DNA of 40,641 nt from Candidatus Nezhaarchaeota archaeon WYZ-LMO8 (GCA_004347965.1 QNVF01000005.1:1-40641); one strand, 5' to 3'; numbered from the stretch's first letter, positions 661 through 12,631 are shown. The notes: generated by a model from the letters alone, not told the origin. Made by a program: numbers and translations.

Positions 661-982
661 TCAATAAATACACGTGTTCTTAGTCTTCCACTTCTAGAGA
701 ATTAAATCTCTAAGTAGAACTTCTAAATCGATAAGAAGATTGCTTTAATTTAATCATTTTATCACCTTAATAGTGGGGCGGAATATCCTTAAGGTATCTT
801 AGAGCGTTGTACTAGGCAATTACGTTGTCAATTAATGGCTGTTAAGTTCCTCGCAACTCATTGATGTCAAGATAGAAGTTTAGTCAAAACCTAGTTCATA
901 GACCTCTTAATGCCTTTTCATGAGAGGTTCTACATTCCAAATCTGGTGGGGCCGGGGGGACTTGAACCCCCGACCAACGGGT

Positions 983-1040
983 CTCTCGCTCCAGAAGGTC
1001 ATCATCCCATATTGGTCTGCAGACCCGTAAACCATGACTT
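983..1040 (-). ncRNA. 58-nt canonical tRNA-Trp intron carrying a box C/D-type guide
   Basis: ACGGGTCTG (antisense to tRNA positions 35-43) followed by CAGA (D'-like), then ATGATGA (C') and CTTCTGGAGC (antisense to the anticodon region). Same layout as known archaeal tRNA-Trp intron guides. Confidence 0.75.
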
Positions 1041-1049
1041 CTGGAGCCC

Positions 1050-1072
1050 TTAACGTCGGTCAAGAGGCCGAT
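1050..1072 (-). other. 23-nt non-canonical tRNA intron at position 28/29
   Basis: BHB-like motif: central helix GACG/CGTT, bulges AC|A and AA|G, intron helix TCGG/CCGA. Cutting after the second bulge nucleotide restores the anticodon stem exactly. Confidence 0.85.
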
Positions 1073-1126
1073 GTCGTCCTACCTTGCTAGACCACGGCCC
1101 CGCAAAACAAGAAGATCACGTGAGTC

Positions 1127-1149: not shown

Positions 1150-1272
1150 TTGCCGCCAGCACGCCCCTTTCCCAGGCCCTCGCGGAGCCCAGTACTCGGG
1201 TGCGCGTTGAGCGGTTTAACTTCCGGGTTCTGATGAGACCGGGTGGGTCCCGCTCACTATGGCCGGCGGCAA
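1150..1272 (-). rRNA. rrf: 5S rRNA, unlinked from 16S/23S in this window; ends approximate
   Basis: Minus strand reads GGCCATAG...CACCCGGTCTCATCAGAACCCGGAAGTTAAACCG...AGTACTGGG...GCGAG...CTGGGAA, closed by the terminal stem GAGTTGCCGCC/GGCGGCAACTC. TTTATA box at about 1298-1303. Confidence 0.95.
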
Positions 1273-5514: not shown

Positions 5515-7023
5515 GTGGTGTCAATTGAAATGCAACTAGAGCTCTCTGATGGTGAGATTAAGGTATTGAAGTGTCTCGGCGAGGTGAAGAGAGCCATGGA
5601 GGTAAATGAAGTTGCTGAACACACGAGACTAAGCGTGAGCACTGTAATGTCTTATTTAGAAGCGCTAAGCCAGAAGGGCCTAATACAGATCCTGGTAGAA
5701 GATGAGGATTACTTAACCTTAACTGACGAGGGTAGGAAGGATGCTGAGAAGGGCCTTCCTGAAAGAAGAATAGTGGAAGAGGTAATGAAGCTTGGAGGTC
5801 AAGCTGCCCTACAAGAAGTGAGGAGGAGGAGTGGCTTAAGCGATGAGGAGGTTAAGATAGCGCTAGGTTGGCTTCGAAGGAAGGGTATTGGAGAGGTAAC
5901 TGTTGTTGGTGGAGAGAGAGTCGTCAAGGTGAGACAGGGCATTGTAAGTTACTCTGTTGAAGAGGTCTTGAAGAAGTTGGCAGGTGGACATAGAGTAAAG
6001 GTTAAGGATATACCTCAAGAGGTTTTATGGGAGCTCAAGACTAGAAAGCTGATTGAAGTAGTACCTCAGAAGAAGAGGAGCGTTTTATTGACTGATACTG
6101 GATTAAGCGTTCTAGAACAGGCTCTACATGTGAAAGTCGTAGGAGCCTTAACTGCGGATATGATAAAGAGTGGTGAGTGGAAGAGCGTCTATTTAAAGCC
6201 ATACGATATTTCTGCTGAGCCCCCTAAGATATATCCTGGTAGGAAGCACTTTTACGTTGAGTTTCTCGATAGAGTTCGAAGAATACTCGTGGAGATGGGC
6301 TTCATAGAAGCTGAGGGCCCCTATGTCGAGATGGAGTTCTGGAACTTCGATGTGCTTTTCCAGGCTCAGGATCATCCTGCACGGGAAATTCATGATTGCT
6401 TCATACTCCTTGAGCCATCGAAGGGCATTCTCCCTGATAAAAAGCTCGTAGAGCAGGTTAAGAGGATACATGAAGAGAGGTGGGGGTATAAGTGGAGTGA
6501 GGAGCAAGCAGCTAGGCTTATACTTCGAAGTCATACAACAGCAGTTTCAGCTAGATTTTTAGCTGGTAAGCCAAAGCCTCCTGTAAGGATGTTCTGCATA
6601 TCAAAGGTCTTTAGACCTGACGTCATTGATGCTACGCACTTCATAGAATTCACTCAAGTCGATGGAATTTACGGCGATAAGGGAGTGAGCCTTAGGAAGC
6701 TCTTTGGAATTCTGCAAGATTTTGTAAAAAGACTTGGTTTTGAAGACATTAAGTTTAGACCTAGCTACTTCCCATTCACAGAACCAAGTGTTGAAGGATC
6801 TGTATATCATCCAAAGCTTGGTTGGATTGAATGCCTTGGCGCTGGCATGTTTAGACCTGAGGTACTTGAAAGCTTAGGGATAGATTATCCGGTTGCTGCA
6901 TGGGGTATAGGGATAGACAGGCTTGCAATGGCATTACTTCAAATATCAGATATACGTGAACTTTGTTCCCGTAACCTTAAGTTTCTTAGGGCTAGGGTGG
7001 TGGAACCACAATGCCTACTATAA
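5515..7023 (+). CDS. pheS: Phenylalanine--tRNA ligase alpha subunit (archaeal type, N-terminal winged-helix domains)
   Basis: FWNFDVLFQAQDHPARE, LRSHTTAVS, FRPD..DATH..EF.Q, YFPFTEPS, GAGMFRPE, WGIGIDRLAM. Confidence 0.97.
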   Translation: MVSIEMQLELSDGEIKVLKCLGEVKRAMEVNEVAEHTRLSVSTVMSYLEALSQKGLIQILVEDEDYLTLTDEGRKDAEKGLPERRIVEEVMKLGGQAALQEVRRRSGLSDEEVKIALGWLRRKGIGEVTVVGGERVVKVRQGIVSYSVEEVLKKLAGGHRVKVKDIPQEVLWELKTRKLIEVVPQKKRSVLLTDTGLSVLEQALHVKVVGALTADMIKSGEWKSVYLKPYDISAEPPKIYPGRKHFYVEFLDRVRRILVEMGFIEAEGPYVEMEFWNFDVLFQAQDHPAREIHDCFILLEPSKGILPDKKLVEQVKRIHEERWGYKWSEEQAARLILRSHTTAVSARFLAGKPKPPVRMFCISKVFRPDVIDATHFIEFTQVDGIYGDKGVSLRKLFGILQDFVKRLGFEDIKFRPSYFPFTEPSVEGSVYHPKLGWIECLGAGMFRPEVLESLGIDYPVAAWGIGIDRLAMALLQISDIRELCSRNLKFLRARVVEPQCLL

Positions 7024-8699
7024 GCATCAATAGAGATGATCTACTTAAGCTCGTTGGTAAAGGTGATTTAAGCGACAATGAGCTAGCAGAAGCTCTAGAG
7101 CTAATAAAGGCCGAGGTCAAGGTTCTTGGACAAAGCGAAATAATACTTGAAGTTACGGCAGATAGGGCAGAAATGTTCTCCACTGAAGGTATAGCTAGGA
7201 GCTTGAAAGGGTTCCTTGAGATAGAGCTTGGTGTTCCTAAATATCCTGTAATTGACGCTATGGAGAATTTCGTTGTGAAGGTTGATAGATCTGTTATGGA
7301 GGTCAGACCTTTTGTTGCATGCGCTGTTGTTGTAGATTGCAATCTTGGAGAGGAAGGATTGAGACAATTAATACAACTACAGGAAGTTCTTCATAAAACT
7401 CATGGGAGAAATCGTAGGAAGTTCGCCATAGGCTTACATAACTTCGATGTAGTAAAGCCCCCCATAACTTACATAGCTAAGCCACTTGACAGCTTCTCAT
7501 TCGTACCGTTAGGGGAAGATAAGAAGTTGAAGGGAGAAGAGATAGTTGAAACTCATCCAAAAGGTAGAGAGTATGGATGGATTATTAAGGATAAGGGCCT
7601 AGCACCCCTCTTAATAGACTCTAACAACAACATCCTCTCCATGCCCCCAATAATAAACTCTGAGCTTACTAGAGTGACTTCAAGAACTAAGAATCTATTC
7701 ATAGACGTTACTGGGACAGACTTAAAGGCTGTAAGAAATGCTCTGGCTATATTAACCGCAAACTTGGCAGAGAGAGGAGGTAAGATAGTCAAGTTCGTGA
7801 TACATGAAGGTCAAGGATCTGAAAGAACTGAGCCTTCAACAGATTGTAAAGTCGTGACAGTGAGTTACGATAGGTTGATTGAAGTTACGGGAATAGAAGA
7901 ATCACTTGACGTAGTTGTAAGGTGCTTGAGGAAGGCTCGAATGGACGCTATTGTAAGAGGAAGAGAGCTTGATGTCTTAGTACCATTCTATCGAATCGAT
8001 GTGATGTGTGACGTTGATGTTGCAGAGGACTTTGCCATTGGTTACGGTTACAATAGGATAGTCCCTGATGTACCTCCAATAACTACGCGAGGACGTGAGC
8101 TTGAGCTTGCCAGCTTCACAAGGATCTGTCGTGAGCTAATGATAGGATACGGATTCCAAGAGGTGGTAAGCTACATGTTTACGAGCGATAAGAAGCTTGA
8201 TGATGCACATATATACGAGGAGAGAGTCAGAGTAGCTAAACCTGTATCCTCCGACTACACTTGTTTAAGAACTAGTCTCATTCCCTCTCTGCTTGACTTC
8301 TTATCAGAGAACGTTCATGTGGAGTATCCTCAAAAAATATTCGAAGTTGGGGACGTAGTGATAGCAAGTGAAGGCTTTGATGAGAAGAGCTTCTCGGATA
8401 GAAGGCTAGCTGTACTACACGCAGACTATAGAGTCGGCTATGAAGATGTTCAAGCAATATTATACTCACTCTTGAGAGTTCTGAGAGTGGAGTTTAAAGT
8501 GAGGAGTGATAGAAGGGGGCTAATGATAGAGGGACGTTGCGGTTCAATAATTGTGAATGGTGATGCTGTAGGTATACTTGGTGAAATAAAGCCAGAGGTC
8601 CTTCTAAAGTTCGGTATACAAACTCCTATAGCAGCATTTGAAATTAGTCTTTCGAAGGTGTATAAGGCATGGAAGACAGGCATTAATACTCGCTCTTAA
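7011..8699 (+). CDS. pheT: Phenylalanine--tRNA ligase beta subunit
   Basis: MPTI, QLQE.LH...GRNR.K.AIGLH, SMPPIINS, FIDVTGT, DVAED.AIGYGY, LRTSLIPSLL. Overlaps pheS by 13 nt. Confidence 0.97.
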   Translation: MPTISINRDDLLKLVGKGDLSDNELAEALELIKAEVKVLGQSEIILEVTADRAEMFSTEGIARSLKGFLEIELGVPKYPVIDAMENFVVKVDRSVMEVRPFVACAVVVDCNLGEEGLRQLIQLQEVLHKTHGRNRRKFAIGLHNFDVVKPPITYIAKPLDSFSFVPLGEDKKLKGEEIVETHPKGREYGWIIKDKGLAPLLIDSNNNILSMPPIINSELTRVTSRTKNLFIDVTGTDLKAVRNALAILTANLAERGGKIVKFVIHEGQGSERTEPSTDCKVVTVSYDRLIEVTGIEESLDVVVRCLRKARMDAIVRGRELDVLVPFYRIDVMCDVDVAEDFAIGYGYNRIVPDVPPITTRGRELELASFTRICRELMIGYGFQEVVSYMFTSDKKLDDAHIYEERVRVAKPVSSDYTCLRTSLIPSLLDFLSENVHVEYPQKIFEVGDVVIASEGFDEKSFSDRRLAVLHADYRVGYEDVQAILYSLLRVLRVEFKVRSDRRGLMIEGRCGSIIVNGDAVGILGEIKPEVLLKFGIQTPIAAFEISLSKVYKAWKTGINTRS

Positions 8700-8705
8700 A
8701 ACTAG

Positions 8706-8823
8706 AGTTTAGGCCGCTGAGTCGAGGGAAGCCGCAGCGACGGGGTGGAGGGACTATGAGGGGGCCCCGATGAATGATCATCCACCTTACCCACCTGCGG
8801 TACAGACTCAGCGGCTCTAAGCT
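8706..8823 (+). ncRNA. Structured RNA 1 (H/ACA-like hairpin with K-turn inside an outer stem)
   Basis: Outer stem GCCGCTGAGTC/GACTCAGCGGC, inner stem GCCGCAG/CTGCGGT followed by ACA, upper stem GGGGTGGA/TCCACCTT, apical TGA-GGG..CCC-GATGA K-turn pattern. GC-rich island in an otherwise AT-richer context. Confidence 0.7.
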
Positions 8824-8833
8824 AACTTTTATA
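8821..8833 (+). promoter_or_regulatory. TATA box driving structured RNA 2 and/or tyrS
   Basis: TTTTATA at 8827-8833, about 23 nt before the RNA 2 terminal stem. Confidence 0.6.
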
Positions 8834-8854
8834 GGTGTTGTTGCCTTCATATTT

Positions 8855-8970
8855 TAAGCCGCGCCGGGGATCTTAGAAAGCCGCGCATAGAGAGTCCCCA
8901 TGGAGGGGGCATCAGGCCCGAGACTATGATATCGGGTGGGTCAATGCGCGGTGACATCCGGCGCGGCTTA
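8855..8970 (+). ncRNA. Structured RNA 2 / tyrS 5' leader
   Basis: Perfect 13-bp outer stem TAAGCCGCGCCGG/CCGGCGCGGCTTA, inner stem GCCGCGCAT/ATGCGCGGT followed by GACA, and two internal hairpins. Ends 15 nt before the tyrS ATG. Confidence 0.7.
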
Positions 8971-8985
8971 TTTCGGGGTAGGACT

Positions 8986-10053
8986 ATGGAGTTTGAAGAG
9001 AAGGTCAAAAAAGTGACAAGGAACACAGCTGAGGTCGTGGTCTTATCTGAGCTTGTAGAGGTATTGAGGAGAGGAGAGGCTAGAGGCTACATAGGAGTTG
9101 AGCCTTCAGGGCTATTCCACATAGGTTGGCTCATTTGGGCTCGGAAGGTTAGGGATTTGTCTGATGTAGGGATTAAGATGAAGATCTTAGAGGCTACATG
9201 GCACGCCTGGATCAACGATAAGCTTGGCGGTTACCTGGAGATGATACATAAGTGTGCAAAGTACATAGAGCATGTTTTGAAGTCTTTGGGAATTGATAAG
9301 GGCGATATAGAGTATGTTAAAGCTGAAGAGCTGATCAGCGATCCTGAGTACTGGAGAATAGTGGTCACGGTGGCCAAGAACTTATCTTTAGCAAGAGTGC
9401 GAAGAGCTATAACCATAATGGGTAGGAAGGAGAGTGAGGGCATCTTGGATTTCTCGAAGCTAATATATCCTTGCATGCAGGTAGCCGACATATTTTACAT
9501 GGACCTTGACGTATGTCTTGGAGGAACTGATCAACGTAAGGCTCACATGCTTGCAAGAGAAATAGCTGAAAAGAAGAAGTGGAAGAAGCCCGTTGCAGTG
9601 CACACACCTTTGCTAATAAGCCTAAGACCTCCTTTAGGGGCTGAAGAAGTGGACGAAGTCGACTTGAAGATGAGTAAGTCTAAACCTGAAACCTGCATCT
9701 TCGTTCACGATACGCCTGATGATATAGCTAAGAAGGTCGAGTATGCTTACTGTCCCATGAAGGTCGTAGAGATGAATCCCATCATCGAGATATGCAAGCA
9801 TATCCTCTTTGCTCAAAACGGCTTCAAACTCTATGTGGAACGTGAAGAAAAACATGGAGGAGATATTTATATTGAGAGCTTTGACGAATTAGTTCAATTG
9901 TATAGTAAGGGAGAGCTTCATCCACAAGATCTTAAGCGAGCCGTTGCAAAAGCGCTATCAGAGATTCTTGAACCTGTTAGAAGGTATTTCGAGGTAAATA
10001 GGGAGGCTAAAGAGCTCCTTAGAACCATGAGTAACGCTACGATAACTAGATAA
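8986..10053 (+). CDS. tyrS: Tyrosine--tRNA ligase
   Basis: YIGVEPSG.FHIGW, HAWINDK, YPCMQVADIF, GG.DQRKAHMLARE, KMSKS. Start set at ATG 8986; the ORF-track extension lies inside the RNA element. Confidence 0.96.
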   Translation: MEFEEKVKKVTRNTAEVVVLSELVEVLRRGEARGYIGVEPSGLFHIGWLIWARKVRDLSDVGIKMKILEATWHAWINDKLGGYLEMIHKCAKYIEHVLKSLGIDKGDIEYVKAEELISDPEYWRIVVTVAKNLSLARVRRAITIMGRKESEGILDFSKLIYPCMQVADIFYMDLDVCLGGTDQRKAHMLAREIAEKKKWKKPVAVHTPLLISLRPPLGAEEVDEVDLKMSKSKPETCIFVHDTPDDIAKKVEYAYCPMKVVEMNPIIEICKHILFAQNGFKLYVEREEKHGGDIYIESFDELVQLYSKGELHPQDLKRAVAKALSEILEPVRRYFEVNREAKELLRTMSNATITR

Positions 10054-10134: not shown

Positions 10135-11328
10135 ATGGGTGGCGTTGCCGTCACTGCTAAGTACGTTATTTACGCTACAATAGAGATTAATGGGATAGTT
10201 GATAAATCTGATGTCATAGGCGCTCTCTTTGGGCAAACTGAAGGCTTACTCGGCGATAAACTTGACTTAAGAGAACTGCAAAAGGCTGGTAGAATAGGTA
10301 GAGTTCAAGTCCTCTTGGAGGAGGAGGATGGTAAGTGCATAGGGCACATCGAGATACCATCTAACTTAGACAAGGTCGAAACAGCACTGATAGCTGCAGC
10401 TATAGAGACAGTCGATAAGGTTGGTCCCTACGATGCTAAGATTACAGTAACTAGGATAGAGGATGTTAGAGAGGAGAAGCGAAAGAAGGTTATGGAGAGA
10501 GCTAAAGAACTTTTAATGAAGTGGAGAGAGACGTTACCTGATACTCGTGAGATAACAGAAGAGATCCTAAAGACCGTCAGGGAGGCTCAGCTCATAACTT
10601 ATGGTCCCGAGAAACTTCCTGCTGGACCAGATATAGACAAGAGCGACACCATAATAATCGTTGAAGGTAGGGCAGACGTCATCAACCTGCTAAGACATGA
10701 TTACCGTAATGTAATAGCAATAGAGGGGGCGTCAATCCCAAAGACCATAATCAATTTATGTAAAGAAAAGACGGCAGTAGCATTTGTAGATGGAGATAGA
10801 GGTGGAGAGCTTGTTCTAAGGCAGCTACTACAAGTAGCTGATATAGATTATGTTGCGAGGGCACCTCCAGGAAAGGAGGTTGAGGAGTTAACTGGAAAGG
10901 AGATAGCAAAATGCTTGAGAGATAAGGTACCCGTAAACGAGTATCTAGCCACTGTAGAGAAAGGCTCTCAACAAGTTCAAGTGCAGCAACCTCATGCTGT
11001 ACTTGAGAGTCCAGCAGTTCTTACTAAAAACAAGATTCCTCCTGAGGTGCTGAGAGAGGCTGAGAAGCTAATAGGAAGTTTGGAGGCCTTGATATACGAC
11101 GAGTCTTGGAAGACTTTAGCGAAGATACCAGTAAAGGATCTGGCAAACTACTTGCAATCAACTCAAGACCCTGTAAGCTACGTTGTTTTTGATGGTGTAA
11201 TAACTCAGAGACTCCTAGAGATAGCTGAAGTTAGAGGTGTTAAGATCATCGTAGGCGGGAGGGTAGGAAACATAACTCATAAGCCTACGTCAATGGAGAT
11301 ACTTACATTTAACGAGCTGGGTCTTTGA
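10135..11328 (+). CDS. dnaG: Archaeal DnaG (TOPRIM, exosome-associated)
   Basis: DVIGALFGQTEGLLG..LDLRELQK.GRIGR, IIVEGRADV, FVDGDRGG, ARAP.GKEVEEL, FDGVITQRL. Confidence 0.96.
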   Translation: MGGVAVTAKYVIYATIEINGIVDKSDVIGALFGQTEGLLGDKLDLRELQKAGRIGRVQVLLEEEDGKCIGHIEIPSNLDKVETALIAAAIETVDKVGPYDAKITVTRIEDVREEKRKKVMERAKELLMKWRETLPDTREITEEILKTVREAQLITYGPEKLPAGPDIDKSDTIIIVEGRADVINLLRHDYRNVIAIEGASIPKTIINLCKEKTAVAFVDGDRGGELVLRQLLQVADIDYVARAPPGKEVEELTGKEIAKCLRDKVPVNEYLATVEKGSQQVQVQQPHAVLESPAVLTKNKIPPEVLREAEKLIGSLEALIYDESWKTLAKIPVKDLANYLQSTQDPVSYVVFDGVITQRLLEIAEVRGVKIIVGGRVGNITHKPTSMEILTFNELGL

Positions 11329-11329
11329 G

Positions 11330-12631
11330 ATGATTCCACAGACAGAAGAGAAGGAGGATGTGAGGAAGGGGTTAGATAGAGTACTTAGAGATGCTGAAAG
11401 TTACGCTAAGAGGTTGCTTGAAGATAGCTCTGAAAAGGTGATAATAGTTCACCACGATGATGCTGATGGTGTATGCGCAGGAGCCCTCCTCAAAACAGCG
11501 CTCGAAGACAGGTTCGCTGTTCACACGATATGTCTTGAGAAAACCTATCCTATAGCTATAAAGAGATTGCAAGAGCAAGGTAAAGAGCCCATAATTTATG
11601 TGGACCTTGGTAGCCCTCACGTATCCACTATATCTACTTTTAACAGGCAAAAGAGGACGATAGTAATCATAGATCACCACGATCTAGATGGTCTCGAAGG
11701 GATAAGTGAAGAAGTAGCAGTTCTGAATCCCGAAATACATGGAGTTGATGGTGGGATCTATGCATGTGGTGCTAGTCTCGCATACTTTTTTGCACACTCA
11801 ATAAAGAAGAATGTAGAGAAGTACTCTGGACTAGCTGTTATAGGTTCCGTTGAAATACCAGGAGAAGCTAAGGGGCTTAACCTCTTAGTCCTCAACGAGG
11901 CTTTGAAAGCTGGAGTGGCAGTCTACGATAAGGATTCTGGGAGAGCTAAGGTTCTCTGGAATGGCAAGTTCACTAACCCTGAGACTTTATCGACAAAGCT
12001 CACGATAATGGCTTCTGTAGGATATTACGATGAGGGACCTCAAAAAGCCTTAAACTCATGCATTAAGTGTTCGTGGGCTGGAGTGGAAGGTTATCTTGAC
12101 TTACTAGAAGAAAAAAGGAAAAGAGCTTACTCAAGCATTATGGCAAGACTTCGATATGCAGGGCTTAATAAATTAAAGAGGATTCAGTGGTTCCACGTTG
12201 AAGATGGTTTTCGTGATATGGGCGTCAAGGTCATAGGGACGTTTTGCAGCTATTTAATGCATCAGAAGATGATCGATGAGGACAAGGTTCTGGTCGGAAT
12301 GATGAATATGAGAAGCGATGTACCAGGCCTTGGAGATCTAGGTGAAGTATATGTCAAAGTATCTGCAAGAGCACCTAAAAGAGTATTAGCATTAATAGAC
12401 TCAGGTTCTTTAGAACCTCTATCGAAAGCCCTCCCAGAAGCAGCTAAACGAGTAGGTGGGTTCGGTGATGGTCATGCTGCCGCAGCTAGTGGTGTAATAC
12501 CTAGAGGTAAAGAGAAGGAGTTTTTGGAGTTAATGGATGAGTTGCTGGTAAAAGAAGGAGTAAGGAGAGGAGAGAAGCAGGCTAGAGTAACTCTTGAAAG
12601 CTTTCTATTTCCTAAGAAAGTCGAAAAGTGA
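11330..12631 (+). CDS. DHH/DHHA1 phosphoesterase, RecJ/Cdc45(GAN)-like
   Basis: HHDDADG, VDLGS, IDHH, LNP..HG.DG, KVSAR, GDGHAAAA. Confidence 0.85.
   Translation: MIPQTEEKEDVRKGLDRVLRDAESYAKRLLEDSSEKVIIVHHDDADGVCAGALLKTALEDRFAVHTICLEKTYPIAIKRLQEQGKEPIIYVDLGSPHVSTISTFNRQKRTIVIIDHHDLDGLEGISEEVAVLNPEIHGVDGGIYACGASLAYFFAHSIKKNVEKYSGLAVIGSVEIPGEAKGLNLLVLNEALKAGVAVYDKDSGRAKVLWNGKFTNPETLSTKLTIMASVGYYDEGPQKALNSCIKCSWAGVEGYLDLLEEKRKRAYSSIMARLRYAGLNKLKRIQWFHVEDGFRDMGVKVIGTFCSYLMHQKMIDEDKVLVGMMNMRSDVPGLGDLGEVYVKVSARAPKRVLALIDSGSLEPLSKALPEAAKRVGGFGDGHAAAASGVIPRGKEKEFLELMDELLVKEGVRRGEKQARVTLESFLFPKKVEK

Follow-up and report, generated by a model that had tools for sequence, protein, structure and literature searches.

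Candidate tandem box H/ACA guide RNAs with an outer closing helix upstream of tyrS in a Nezhaarchaeales-like archaeon

Background

Archaeal box H/ACA RNAs have been described as hairpins with a lower stem of 7-9 bp, an ACA box at 14-16 nt from the pair that closes the upper stem, and an upper ('GA') stem of 8-11 layers, with 10 in crystal structures (PMC4652768); the strands of the internal loop measure 5-11 nt (PMC2377435), and the upper part holds a kink-turn (K-turn) or K-loop (PMC7991803). In the single-hairpin guides the ACA comes after the hairpin, on the 3' tail or end (PMC4652768, PMC11077068, PMC7991803), and internal ANA boxes have been described just between the hairpins of multi-hairpin RNAs. 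In Nanoarchaeum equitans, RNA-seq found a single 159-nt H/ACA small RNA (sRNA), the sole one of this organism, which is composed of two kink-turn-bulged hairpins parted just by ACA and lies in the intergenic region adjoining NEQ389, the gene for tyrosyl-tRNA synthetase (PMC3491384). Here we describe two structured units located between pheT and tyrS on a 40,641-nt stretch of DNA (hereafter the window) from Candidatus Nezhaarchaeota archaeon WYZ-LMO8 (GCA_004347965.1 QNVF01000005.1:1-40641), one at 8713-8815 (unit 1) and the other at 8858-8967 (unit 2), both on the + strand.

We consider both units to be single-hairpin archaeal box H/ACA pseudouridine-guide RNAs, each with its own TATA promoter, with a probability of about 0.85. 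At the sequence level this assignment is supported by anatomy, covariation, conservation and gene linkage; protein binding, pseudouridylation and the targets of the two units are inferred. An earlier description of the window (the sequence-only reading) had offered two possibilities, namely atypical H/ACA guides with the ACA enclosed by an extra helix or a new regulatory RNA associated with aminoacyl-tRNA synthetase genes; the former agrees with the geometry, the invariant pocket and ACA, the covarying stems and the GA/GA motif reported below.

Anatomy of the two units

Both units are present with the extent and features originally described. Their GC content is 0.65, against 0.43 across the whole window, and each was evaluated against 200 dinucleotide shuffles, none of which folded as well (unit 1: minimum free energy = -51.5 kcal/mol, z = -3.41; unit 2: -63.6, z = -6.13; 0/200 in both cases). 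In each unit an outer helix of 10-11 bp pairs the first and last transcript bases and leaves the ACA in an asymmetric internal loop. The elements of the first reading are all found: GCCGCTGAGTC/GACTCAGCGGC and GCCGCGCCGG/CCGGCGCGGC form the outer stems, the inner stems run from GCCGC to GCGGT, and each internal loop carries an ACA in its 3' strand (8802-8804 and 8954-8956).

The outer helix of unit 1 (8713-8723 with 8805-8815; 11 bp) is followed by a linker (8724-8730), which forms the 5' strand of the internal loop facing the ACA, and by a lower stem of 7 bp (8731-8737 with 8795-8801). Its pocket is made up of a 5' guide strand, CGACGG (8738-8743), and a 3' guide strand, TTACCCAC (8787-8794; UUACCCAC as RNA). 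The 5' strand of the upper stem (8744-8753) ends in G8752 A8753 and the opposite strand (8776-8786) begins with G8776 A8777; from its pattern, A-U-G-A at 8774-8777 is predicted to be the bulged K-turn strand. The first 6 bp, interrupted by a single bulged base (8780), a further 2 bp and the G.A/A.G pairs add up to 10 layers. The apical part (8754-8775) contains a short stem, a second GA/GA pair, a GGG/CCC hairpin and an AAU bulge. This second GA/GA is nearly two-fold symmetric to the first one (GA-2 nt-NRU-GA on both strands) and could, judging by its bases, be a further K-turn-like motif; in the Methanomethylicia copies plain base pairs occupy the same place.

Unit 2 is built in the same way, with an outer helix of 10 bp (8858-8867 with 8958-8967), a lower stem of 9 bp (8880-8888 with 8944-8952) and pocket strands AGAGAGT (8889-8895) and TGGGTCA (8937-8943). 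The 5' strand of its upper stem (8896-8904) consists of CCCCATG plus G8903 A8904 and is partnered by 8930-8936, while the 3' side including G8928 A8929 extends over 8928-8936; hence the stem reads CCCCAUG/UAUCGGG with one C.C layer, followed by GA/GA. Its ACA (8954-8956) stands one spacer base past the lower stem.

Measured against the published dimensions, both lower stems reach at least 7 bp (7 bp in unit 1 and 9 bp in unit 2), and the conserved pocket strands lie within 5-11 nt (6 + 8 nt in unit 1; 7 + 7 or 6 + 6 in unit 2). The ACA of unit 1 is located 15 nt from the upper-stem closing pair and that of unit 2 at a borderline 16-17 nt. A GA stem with a kink-turn is recognizable by sequence pattern in both, with 10 layers in unit 1 and 9-10 in unit 2, where 9 layers go with the ACA at 17 nt and 10 layers with the ACA at 16 nt if the flanking U residues stack. 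By analogy with characterised H/ACA ribonucleoproteins, L7Ae would bind the GA/GA kink-turn atop the upper stem, the two invariant internal-loop strands would bracket one uridine of a target RNA by pairing on both of its sides, and Cbf5 (with Nop10 and Gar1) would turn that uridine into pseudouridine. Because the two units differ in their pockets, they would guide different sites.

As anticipated by the sequence-only reading, the units match no known Rfam family. At gathering score the whole window gave the 5S rRNA and three tRNAs and nothing at the units, whereas at E <= 10 the segment 8650-9020 gave just two chance-level matches and no H/ACA family. The archaeal H/ACA families RF00058, RF00060, RF00064 and RF00065 did not match at the units, and no Rfam match was obtained at the homologous RNAs in the seven loci scanned. 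Some smaller points of the first description need modification. The words said to be shared by the units all occur, but in a different order: GGGTGG (8743), GACTATGA (8752), GAGGGGGC (8758) and CCCGA (8766) in unit 1, and GAGGGGGC (8903), CCCGA (8917), GACTATGA (8922) and GGGTGG (8934) in unit 2; hence they are not at homologous positions.

Conservation and covariation

Species-representative genomes were scanned with a TyrRS alignment, and 80 loci were taken of 271 confirmed; six of these are Nezha-type (TyrRS identity 72-83%) and 74 are non-Nezha. Five of the six Nezha-type loci possess both units in the same order directly upstream of tyrS, and the contig of the sixth begins exactly at unit 2. 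Unit 1 is kept in 5/5 related loci that extend this far and unit 2 in 6/6, giving alignments of six and seven sequences, respectively, with the window included. The structural conservation in related genomes that the first description called for is seen both in these orthologue alignments and with covariance models.

The model of unit 1 comprises 30 pairs, with 98.9% of the cells paired and 8 pairs changed on both sides, and its covariation values were reached by at most 1/500 shuffles. Every cell of the outer helix is paired in the six sequences, with double-sided changes at 4 of the 11 pairs; the upper stem shows such changes at 3 of its 8 standard pairs and the apical stem at 1 of its 3 (alignment columns 52-63: G-C in three sequences and A-U in three). 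The lower stem is likewise paired in 100% of the cells, with six constant pairs and one that goes from G-U to G-C. The 5' guide strand and the ACA are identical in 6/6 sequences, A-U-G-A at 8774-8777 is constant, and the sole change in the 3' guide strand is a C->T at the final base in locus L005, where pairing with G would be retained. Elsewhere the 5' strand is CGAAGG in the Methanomethylicia-type copies and GACGG in the Bathyarchaeia copies; the pocket variants taken together are CGACGG, CGAAGG and GACGG for the 5' strand and UUACCCAC, UAACCCAC and UUAACCCA for the 3' strand. The purine-rich 5' linker noted earlier is present in the window but is not conserved, since both its sequence and its length (7-10 nt in unit 1) differ among the orthologues.

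The model of unit 2 has 28 pairs, of which 3 are changed on both sides, with 99.5% of the cells paired (at most 1/500 shuffles as high). Its outer helix shows nine constant pairs and one that goes from G-C to A-U. In the lower stem 98.4% of the cells are paired and one compensatory change is found (C-G to U-A in locus L004), and in the upper stem the column pair 43-75 passes from A-U to G-C to G-U. The 5' pocket strand is nearly constant, the 3' pocket strand is constant except for its final base (G in L004), T-G-A at 8927-8929 does not vary, and the box is ACA in 6/7 and ATA in 1/7 sequences. The GA and xRUGA words of the predicted kink-turn are constant among the orthologues of both units.

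A constant pocket and ACA held by covarying stems is the conservation pattern of a guide RNA. The differences between the two copies, which had been taken as covariation, are not strict covariation; the true covariation is the one seen with the orthologues.

Families and distribution across Thermoproteota

Covariance models were made of unit 1 (R1), of unit 2 (R2) and of alignment A6, which holds 23 non-Nezha RNAs upstream of tyrS (R3). R1 does not match unit 2 and R2 does not match unit 1; the two units were thus wrongly taken for one RNA family and instead represent two guide families of one class. R1 matched over its full length upstream of tyrS in four loci of Methanomethylicia type, three of them with E between 5e-6 and 1e-5 and the fourth with E = 0.013, and unit 1-type RNAs with the pockets GA(C/A)GG + UUA(A)CCCA occur in tandem upstream of the R3-family RNA in three Bathyarchaeia loci. 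R2 gave weaker matches adjoining tyrS in Desulfurococcales and Bathyarchaeia loci.

The RNAs collected in A6 belong to a wide tyrS-adjacent family. In this alignment 18 of the 21 pairs are changed on both sides (0/500 shuffles as high), and the geometry is the canonical 10/5/8-9 layers when the G.U closing pair is counted. At E <= 2.3e-4, R3 finds the RNA in 60 of the 74 non-Nezha loci, 42 times on the same strand as tyrS and 18 times on the other one; 59 of the 60 lie within ~450 nt upstream of tyrS and one is 5.3 kb off. The four Sulfolobales loci gave no R3 match.

Unit 2 is a divergent copy of this wide family. It shares with the R3 family the position, the AGAG beside the upper stem, an upper stem of seven layers that contains a mismatch, and the outer helix; it differs in the 3' pocket strand, (U)GGGUCA as opposed to the family's invariant (U)GUUAG. 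Due to this difference the R3 match is just marginal, both in the window (8877-8956, E = 0.07) and among the Nezha unit 2 copies (E = 0.009 to 0.13 in 4/7, with three copies not reported). Going by the pocket sequences, the target of the Nezha unit 2 has probably changed relative to the wide family.

Two other explanations were considered. Two similar-looking tandem units might recall non-functional GC-rich palindromes or remnants of mobile repeats, but the locus is fixed across Thermoproteota classes, the stems are compensatory while the loops are invariant, and additional copies are absent from the 40.6 kb window and from the rest of the loci, so we give this idea almost no credence. Another kink-turn RNA, for example a box C/D methylation guide or a new class in which the ACA is incidental, could be suspected from the ATGA/GATGA words of unit 1, which resemble C boxes. 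A box C/D guide would have a C box, RUGAUGA, close to its 5' terminus, a D box, CUGA, close to its 3' terminus, and C'/D' as well; here both ends are GCCGC...GCGGC helices with neither a terminal C/D pair nor a CTGA near either 3' end. Moreover, ACA/ANA is retained in 13/13 Nezha-type copies and in 22/23 rows of A6 (the remaining row ends two bases short of its ACA), which makes this alternative hardly credible.

Target search and points against the assignment

Complementing the pockets gives the predicted target words GUGGGUAA-U-N-CCGUCG for unit 1 and UGACCC(A)-U-N-(A)CUCUCU for unit 2. Targets were sought with U-N unpaired and G.U pairs allowed, using heterologous rRNA (E. coli rrnB and the H. 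marismortui operon on plasmid pHMA288), because none of the 80 tyrS loci contains an rRNA operon.

Several results weigh against the H/ACA guide assignment. No canonical target was found for either pocket in the E. coli and H. marismortui rRNA, nor in the 5S, signal recognition particle (SRP) RNA and tRNA genes of the window and several related loci. Neither ACA is on a free 3' tail, which sets the units apart from classic single-hairpin RNAs; in both, the outer helix follows with its 3' strand. In unit 2 the ACA is 17 nt from G8936 (16 if T8895/T8937 stack), that is, at or just beyond the published range, and the bulged kink-turn strand (from the apical CCC to GA) measures 8 nt where 3 is usual. 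Finally, a two-hairpin alternative fold of the unit 2 core is nearly as compatible with the few available substitutions. This fold, which resembles the minimum free energy structure, was rejected as slightly worse (96.8% paired, with one pair broken in L004).

The lack of a canonical target in any RNA scanned would also suit RNAs that have the H/ACA fold and bind the H/ACA proteins but do not modify, serving instead, for example, to chaperone or process rRNA or some other RNA. There is a precedent in the eukaryotic snR30, which pairs at the pocket bottom and does not guide modification (PMC7991803). However, the most conserved part of our units is the pocket strands beside the upper stem, as expected of a modification guide, and the target-less scans are weak evidence because the rRNA scanned was heterologous. 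We therefore regard a non-modifying role as improbable and retain the guide assignment.

A number of individual targets were considered and rejected. For unit 1 at E. coli 23S U2243, the bases directly ahead of this uridine are matched by the 3' strand at 8/8 positions, the 5' strand matches at just 3/6, and the upstream word is absent in H. marismortui. A lead in the peptidyl-transferase region was given by the unit 1 strands against UGGGU + CCGUCG of H. marismortui 23S (E. coli 2580-2584 and 2590-2595). It leaves 5 target bases unpaired, the Methanomethylicia copy has a central mismatch, and the match is not significant, as 165/500 shuffled guides do equally well once the rule is relaxed in this way; the stretch 2580-2595 of E. 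coli 23S lies near known archaeal pseudouridines. For the wide family, the two 8/9 matches seen in E. coli and H. marismortui fell at sites that are not homologous. In tRNA-Tyr the bases ahead of U35 are C/U32-U33-G34, and U35 was discarded as a target since neither pocket pairs with them beyond two wobble pairs; a tRNA-Tyr(GUA) was found among none of the 78 ARAGORN tRNAs in the loci. This U35 is guided by H/ACA RNAs in Sulfolobales and Aeropyrum (PMC2651775, PMC11077068).

Transcription and linkage to tyrS

The two TATA-like boxes previously pointed out are present, 24 nt ahead of each unit. The box of unit 1, TTAATA (8683-8688, + strand), lies within the 3' end of pheT, 24 nt upstream of G8713, and an A/T box is kept at this position in all five unit 1-bearing Nezha-type loci. 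That of unit 2, TTTTATA (8827-8833, + strand), ends 24 nt upstream of G8858, and the box TTTATAGG with its flanks is identical or nearly so in 5/5 related loci containing the spacer. These conserved boxes fit two separate archaeal transcription units. In L005 an insert of ~140 nt (9736-9873) separates unit 1 from the unit 2 promoter, the spacer being ~42 nt in the other loci.

The 18-nt gap between unit 2 and the tyrS ATG consists of a purine-rich, Shine-Dalgarno-like stretch with no A/T box. In the six Nezha-type loci this gap measures 22-26 nt, and 13-24 nt in 14 of the 27 loci measured. Since no space is left for a TATA box past unit 2, tyrS would be read from the unit 2 promoter and is probably co-transcribed through the RNA gene, as far as the spacing tells. 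The guide may then be cut out of the tyrS leader or compete with it. Such read-through cannot be the general cause of the tyrS linkage, because the RNA is on the other strand in 18 of the 60 loci.

The same short gaps, with unit 2 ending 18 nt before the tyrS ATG and no room for a promoter, would be expected if the units were cis-acting leader elements of tyrS that bind, for example, L7Ae or TyrRS and mask the ribosome-binding site, and L7Ae-binding kink-turn leaders that regulate translation have been published (PMC5539422, PMC6298567). The opposite-strand location in 18/60 loci, and the distance of 5.3 kb in one, make a purely cis-regulatory role unlikely and equally count against the new synthetase-associated regulatory RNA of the sequence-only reading. 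Moreover, unit 1 adjoins no start codon, a protein-binding leader needs neither an ACA at a fixed distance nor an invariant pocket, and each unit has its own conserved TATA box. Leader elements are therefore quite improbable, and the units are better read as guides.

The novelty implied earlier for the link with tyrS does not hold either, as an H/ACA sRNA beside the tyrosyl-tRNA synthetase gene has been published for N. equitans (PMC3491384). The linkage is thus known, together with expression, for one organism, and is here extended across Thermoproteota in a different packaging. One may go further and propose that a 'closed' H/ACA form is ancient in Thermoproteota, rides on or is released from the tyrS leader, and stays beside tyrS, from Nanoarchaeota to Thermoproteota, by functional coupling rather than by inherited gene order. 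We consider this rather unlikely; if true, TyrRS would be co-regulated with a translation-related pseudouridine, or the target of the guide would be tied to tRNA-Tyr function.

The outer closing helix

An outer helix of at least 8 pairs, starting at most 9 nt past the ACA, is found in 50 of the 60 R3-family loci. Three of the ten misses are artefacts of the simple search, while the other seven are true and concern opposite-strand, Pyrodictiaceae-type RNAs. In open-access full text we found no extra, terminal or closing helix for archaeal H/ACA RNAs and no relevant Nezhaarchaeota sRNAs. What is new here is the closed architecture, its breadth (50/60 family members and all Nezha-type copies) and two annotation models.

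The helix pairs the transcript ends, covaries freely and abuts the ACA, and the simplest reading is end protection and insulation of the fold, in hyperthermophiles and amid crowded transcripts. It may seal the RNA ends against heat and exonucleases, and it may shield the guide fold from transcripts of the adjacent pheT and tyrS genes. The 5' linker, which is long and unconserved, would allow the helix to move clear of the PUA domain of Cbf5. In many Desulfurococcales-type members, unlike in the Nezha copies, the linker facing the ACA is itself conserved (G-A/U-C-A-A/G-C-C-C) directly ahead of the lower stem (L011, L020, L023, L039, L048, L009, L027 and others). A bulge-helix-bulge motif for processing or circularisation, defined by two 3-nt bulges on opposite strands with a 4-bp helix between them, was rejected for this junction, which is a single asymmetric loop with 7-12 nt facing 3-5 nt and no 4-bp spacer.

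Gene neighbourhood

The location between pheT and tyrS given in the first description agrees with NCBIfam equivalog models, which assign pheS to 5515-7023 and pheT to 7011-8699. The tyrS gene (8986-10053, + strand; NF006330 tyrosine--tRNA ligase, E = 2.2e-131) starts at an ATG 18 nt past unit 2 and is followed by dnaG and then a recJ-like gene, also by equivalog models. Judged by its TyrRS, which is 72-92% identical to proteins labelled Candidatus Nezhaarchaeales or Nezhaarchaeota by their sources, the host of the window is a Nezhaarchaeales-like archaeon. Another ATG at 8926, within unit 2, opens the tyrS frame 20 codons early (8926-8985). The alignment of TyrRS homologues begins at the ATG at 8986; one relative (P0002) has 367 aa, compared with 355 aa for the window TyrRS, and its surplus may stem from such an upstream start.

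The DnaG and RecJ-family nuclease genes lie directly after tyrS (10135-12631). Archaeal DnaG is an exosome-associated protein, and RNA-metabolism genes thus flank the guide RNAs.

Further RNA genes were observed around the locus. A tRNA gene at 947-1101 (- strand), matched by Rfam at 39.2 bits and overlooked by ARAGORN, has ~94 nt of extra sequence separating the anticodon arm from the T arm; the insert contains a GATGATGA word resembling a C box and may be an intron with a C/D-like element. A stand-alone 5S rRNA gene is found 6-8 kb upstream of tyrS in the window (1151-1270, - strand) and in several related and distant loci (L004 2167-2287, L057 4280-4401, L032 1823-1948, L010 3915-4034 and L011 2772-2890). 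Two distant lineages carry an archaeal SRP RNA gene, 9-10 kb downstream of tyrS (L011 20705-21019 and L057 18789-19103). The tRNAs, 5S, pheST, H/ACA RNAs and tyrS together appear as an old syntenic block.

Significance and comparison with known systems

Box H/ACA guides are poorly catalogued beyond a few cultured archaea. Descriptor searches assume a free-tail ACA, so a conserved form with a buried ACA, absent from Rfam, would be overlooked. The covariance models are ready for annotating many uncultured Thermoproteota, and the lasting adjacency to tyrS is a simple landmark that also raises a testable question of co-transcription. If the H/ACA assignment is true, Cbf5 must tolerate a helix right after the ACA in a single-hairpin guide. 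Experiments are possible, because the carriers include a listed isolated strain, Methanosuratincola petrocarbonis LWZ-6 (locus L055; PMC12244365).

The two units share with the classic single-hairpin H/ACA sRNAs (Pyrococcus Pab91; S. islandicus sR115 and sR435) the lower stem, the pocket and the kink-turn upper stem, as well as an ACA ~15 nt from the upper stem and a core of ~70 nt (PMC4652768, PMC2377435, PMC11077068). However, the ACA of those RNAs is on a 3' tail, whereas here the 3' strand of a 10-11 bp outer helix comes immediately after it and an unconserved linker of 7-12 nt faces it, and no sequence similarity to the Rfam H/ACA families was detected. With the tyrS-adjacent RNA of N. 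equitans they have in common two kink-turn hairpins directly beside tyrS. That RNA has its own promoter and T-stretch, and its two hairpins form one transcript joined by ACA, whereas ours are two TATA-bearing closed units, the comparison being made by description. The atypical H/ACA-like RNAs of Pyrobaculum and Sulfolobus are likewise crenarchaeal pseudouridine guides that depart from the classic shape, but the units described here add a helix. Multi-hairpin sRNAs such as Pab35, Pab40 and H. volcanii sR-h45 also carry an internal ANA box that is not at the 3' end; in those the next guide hairpin comes after the ANA, while here a helix closes back onto the 5' end. The class, box H/ACA, is therefore known and the gene linkage is old, but the structural variant is new.

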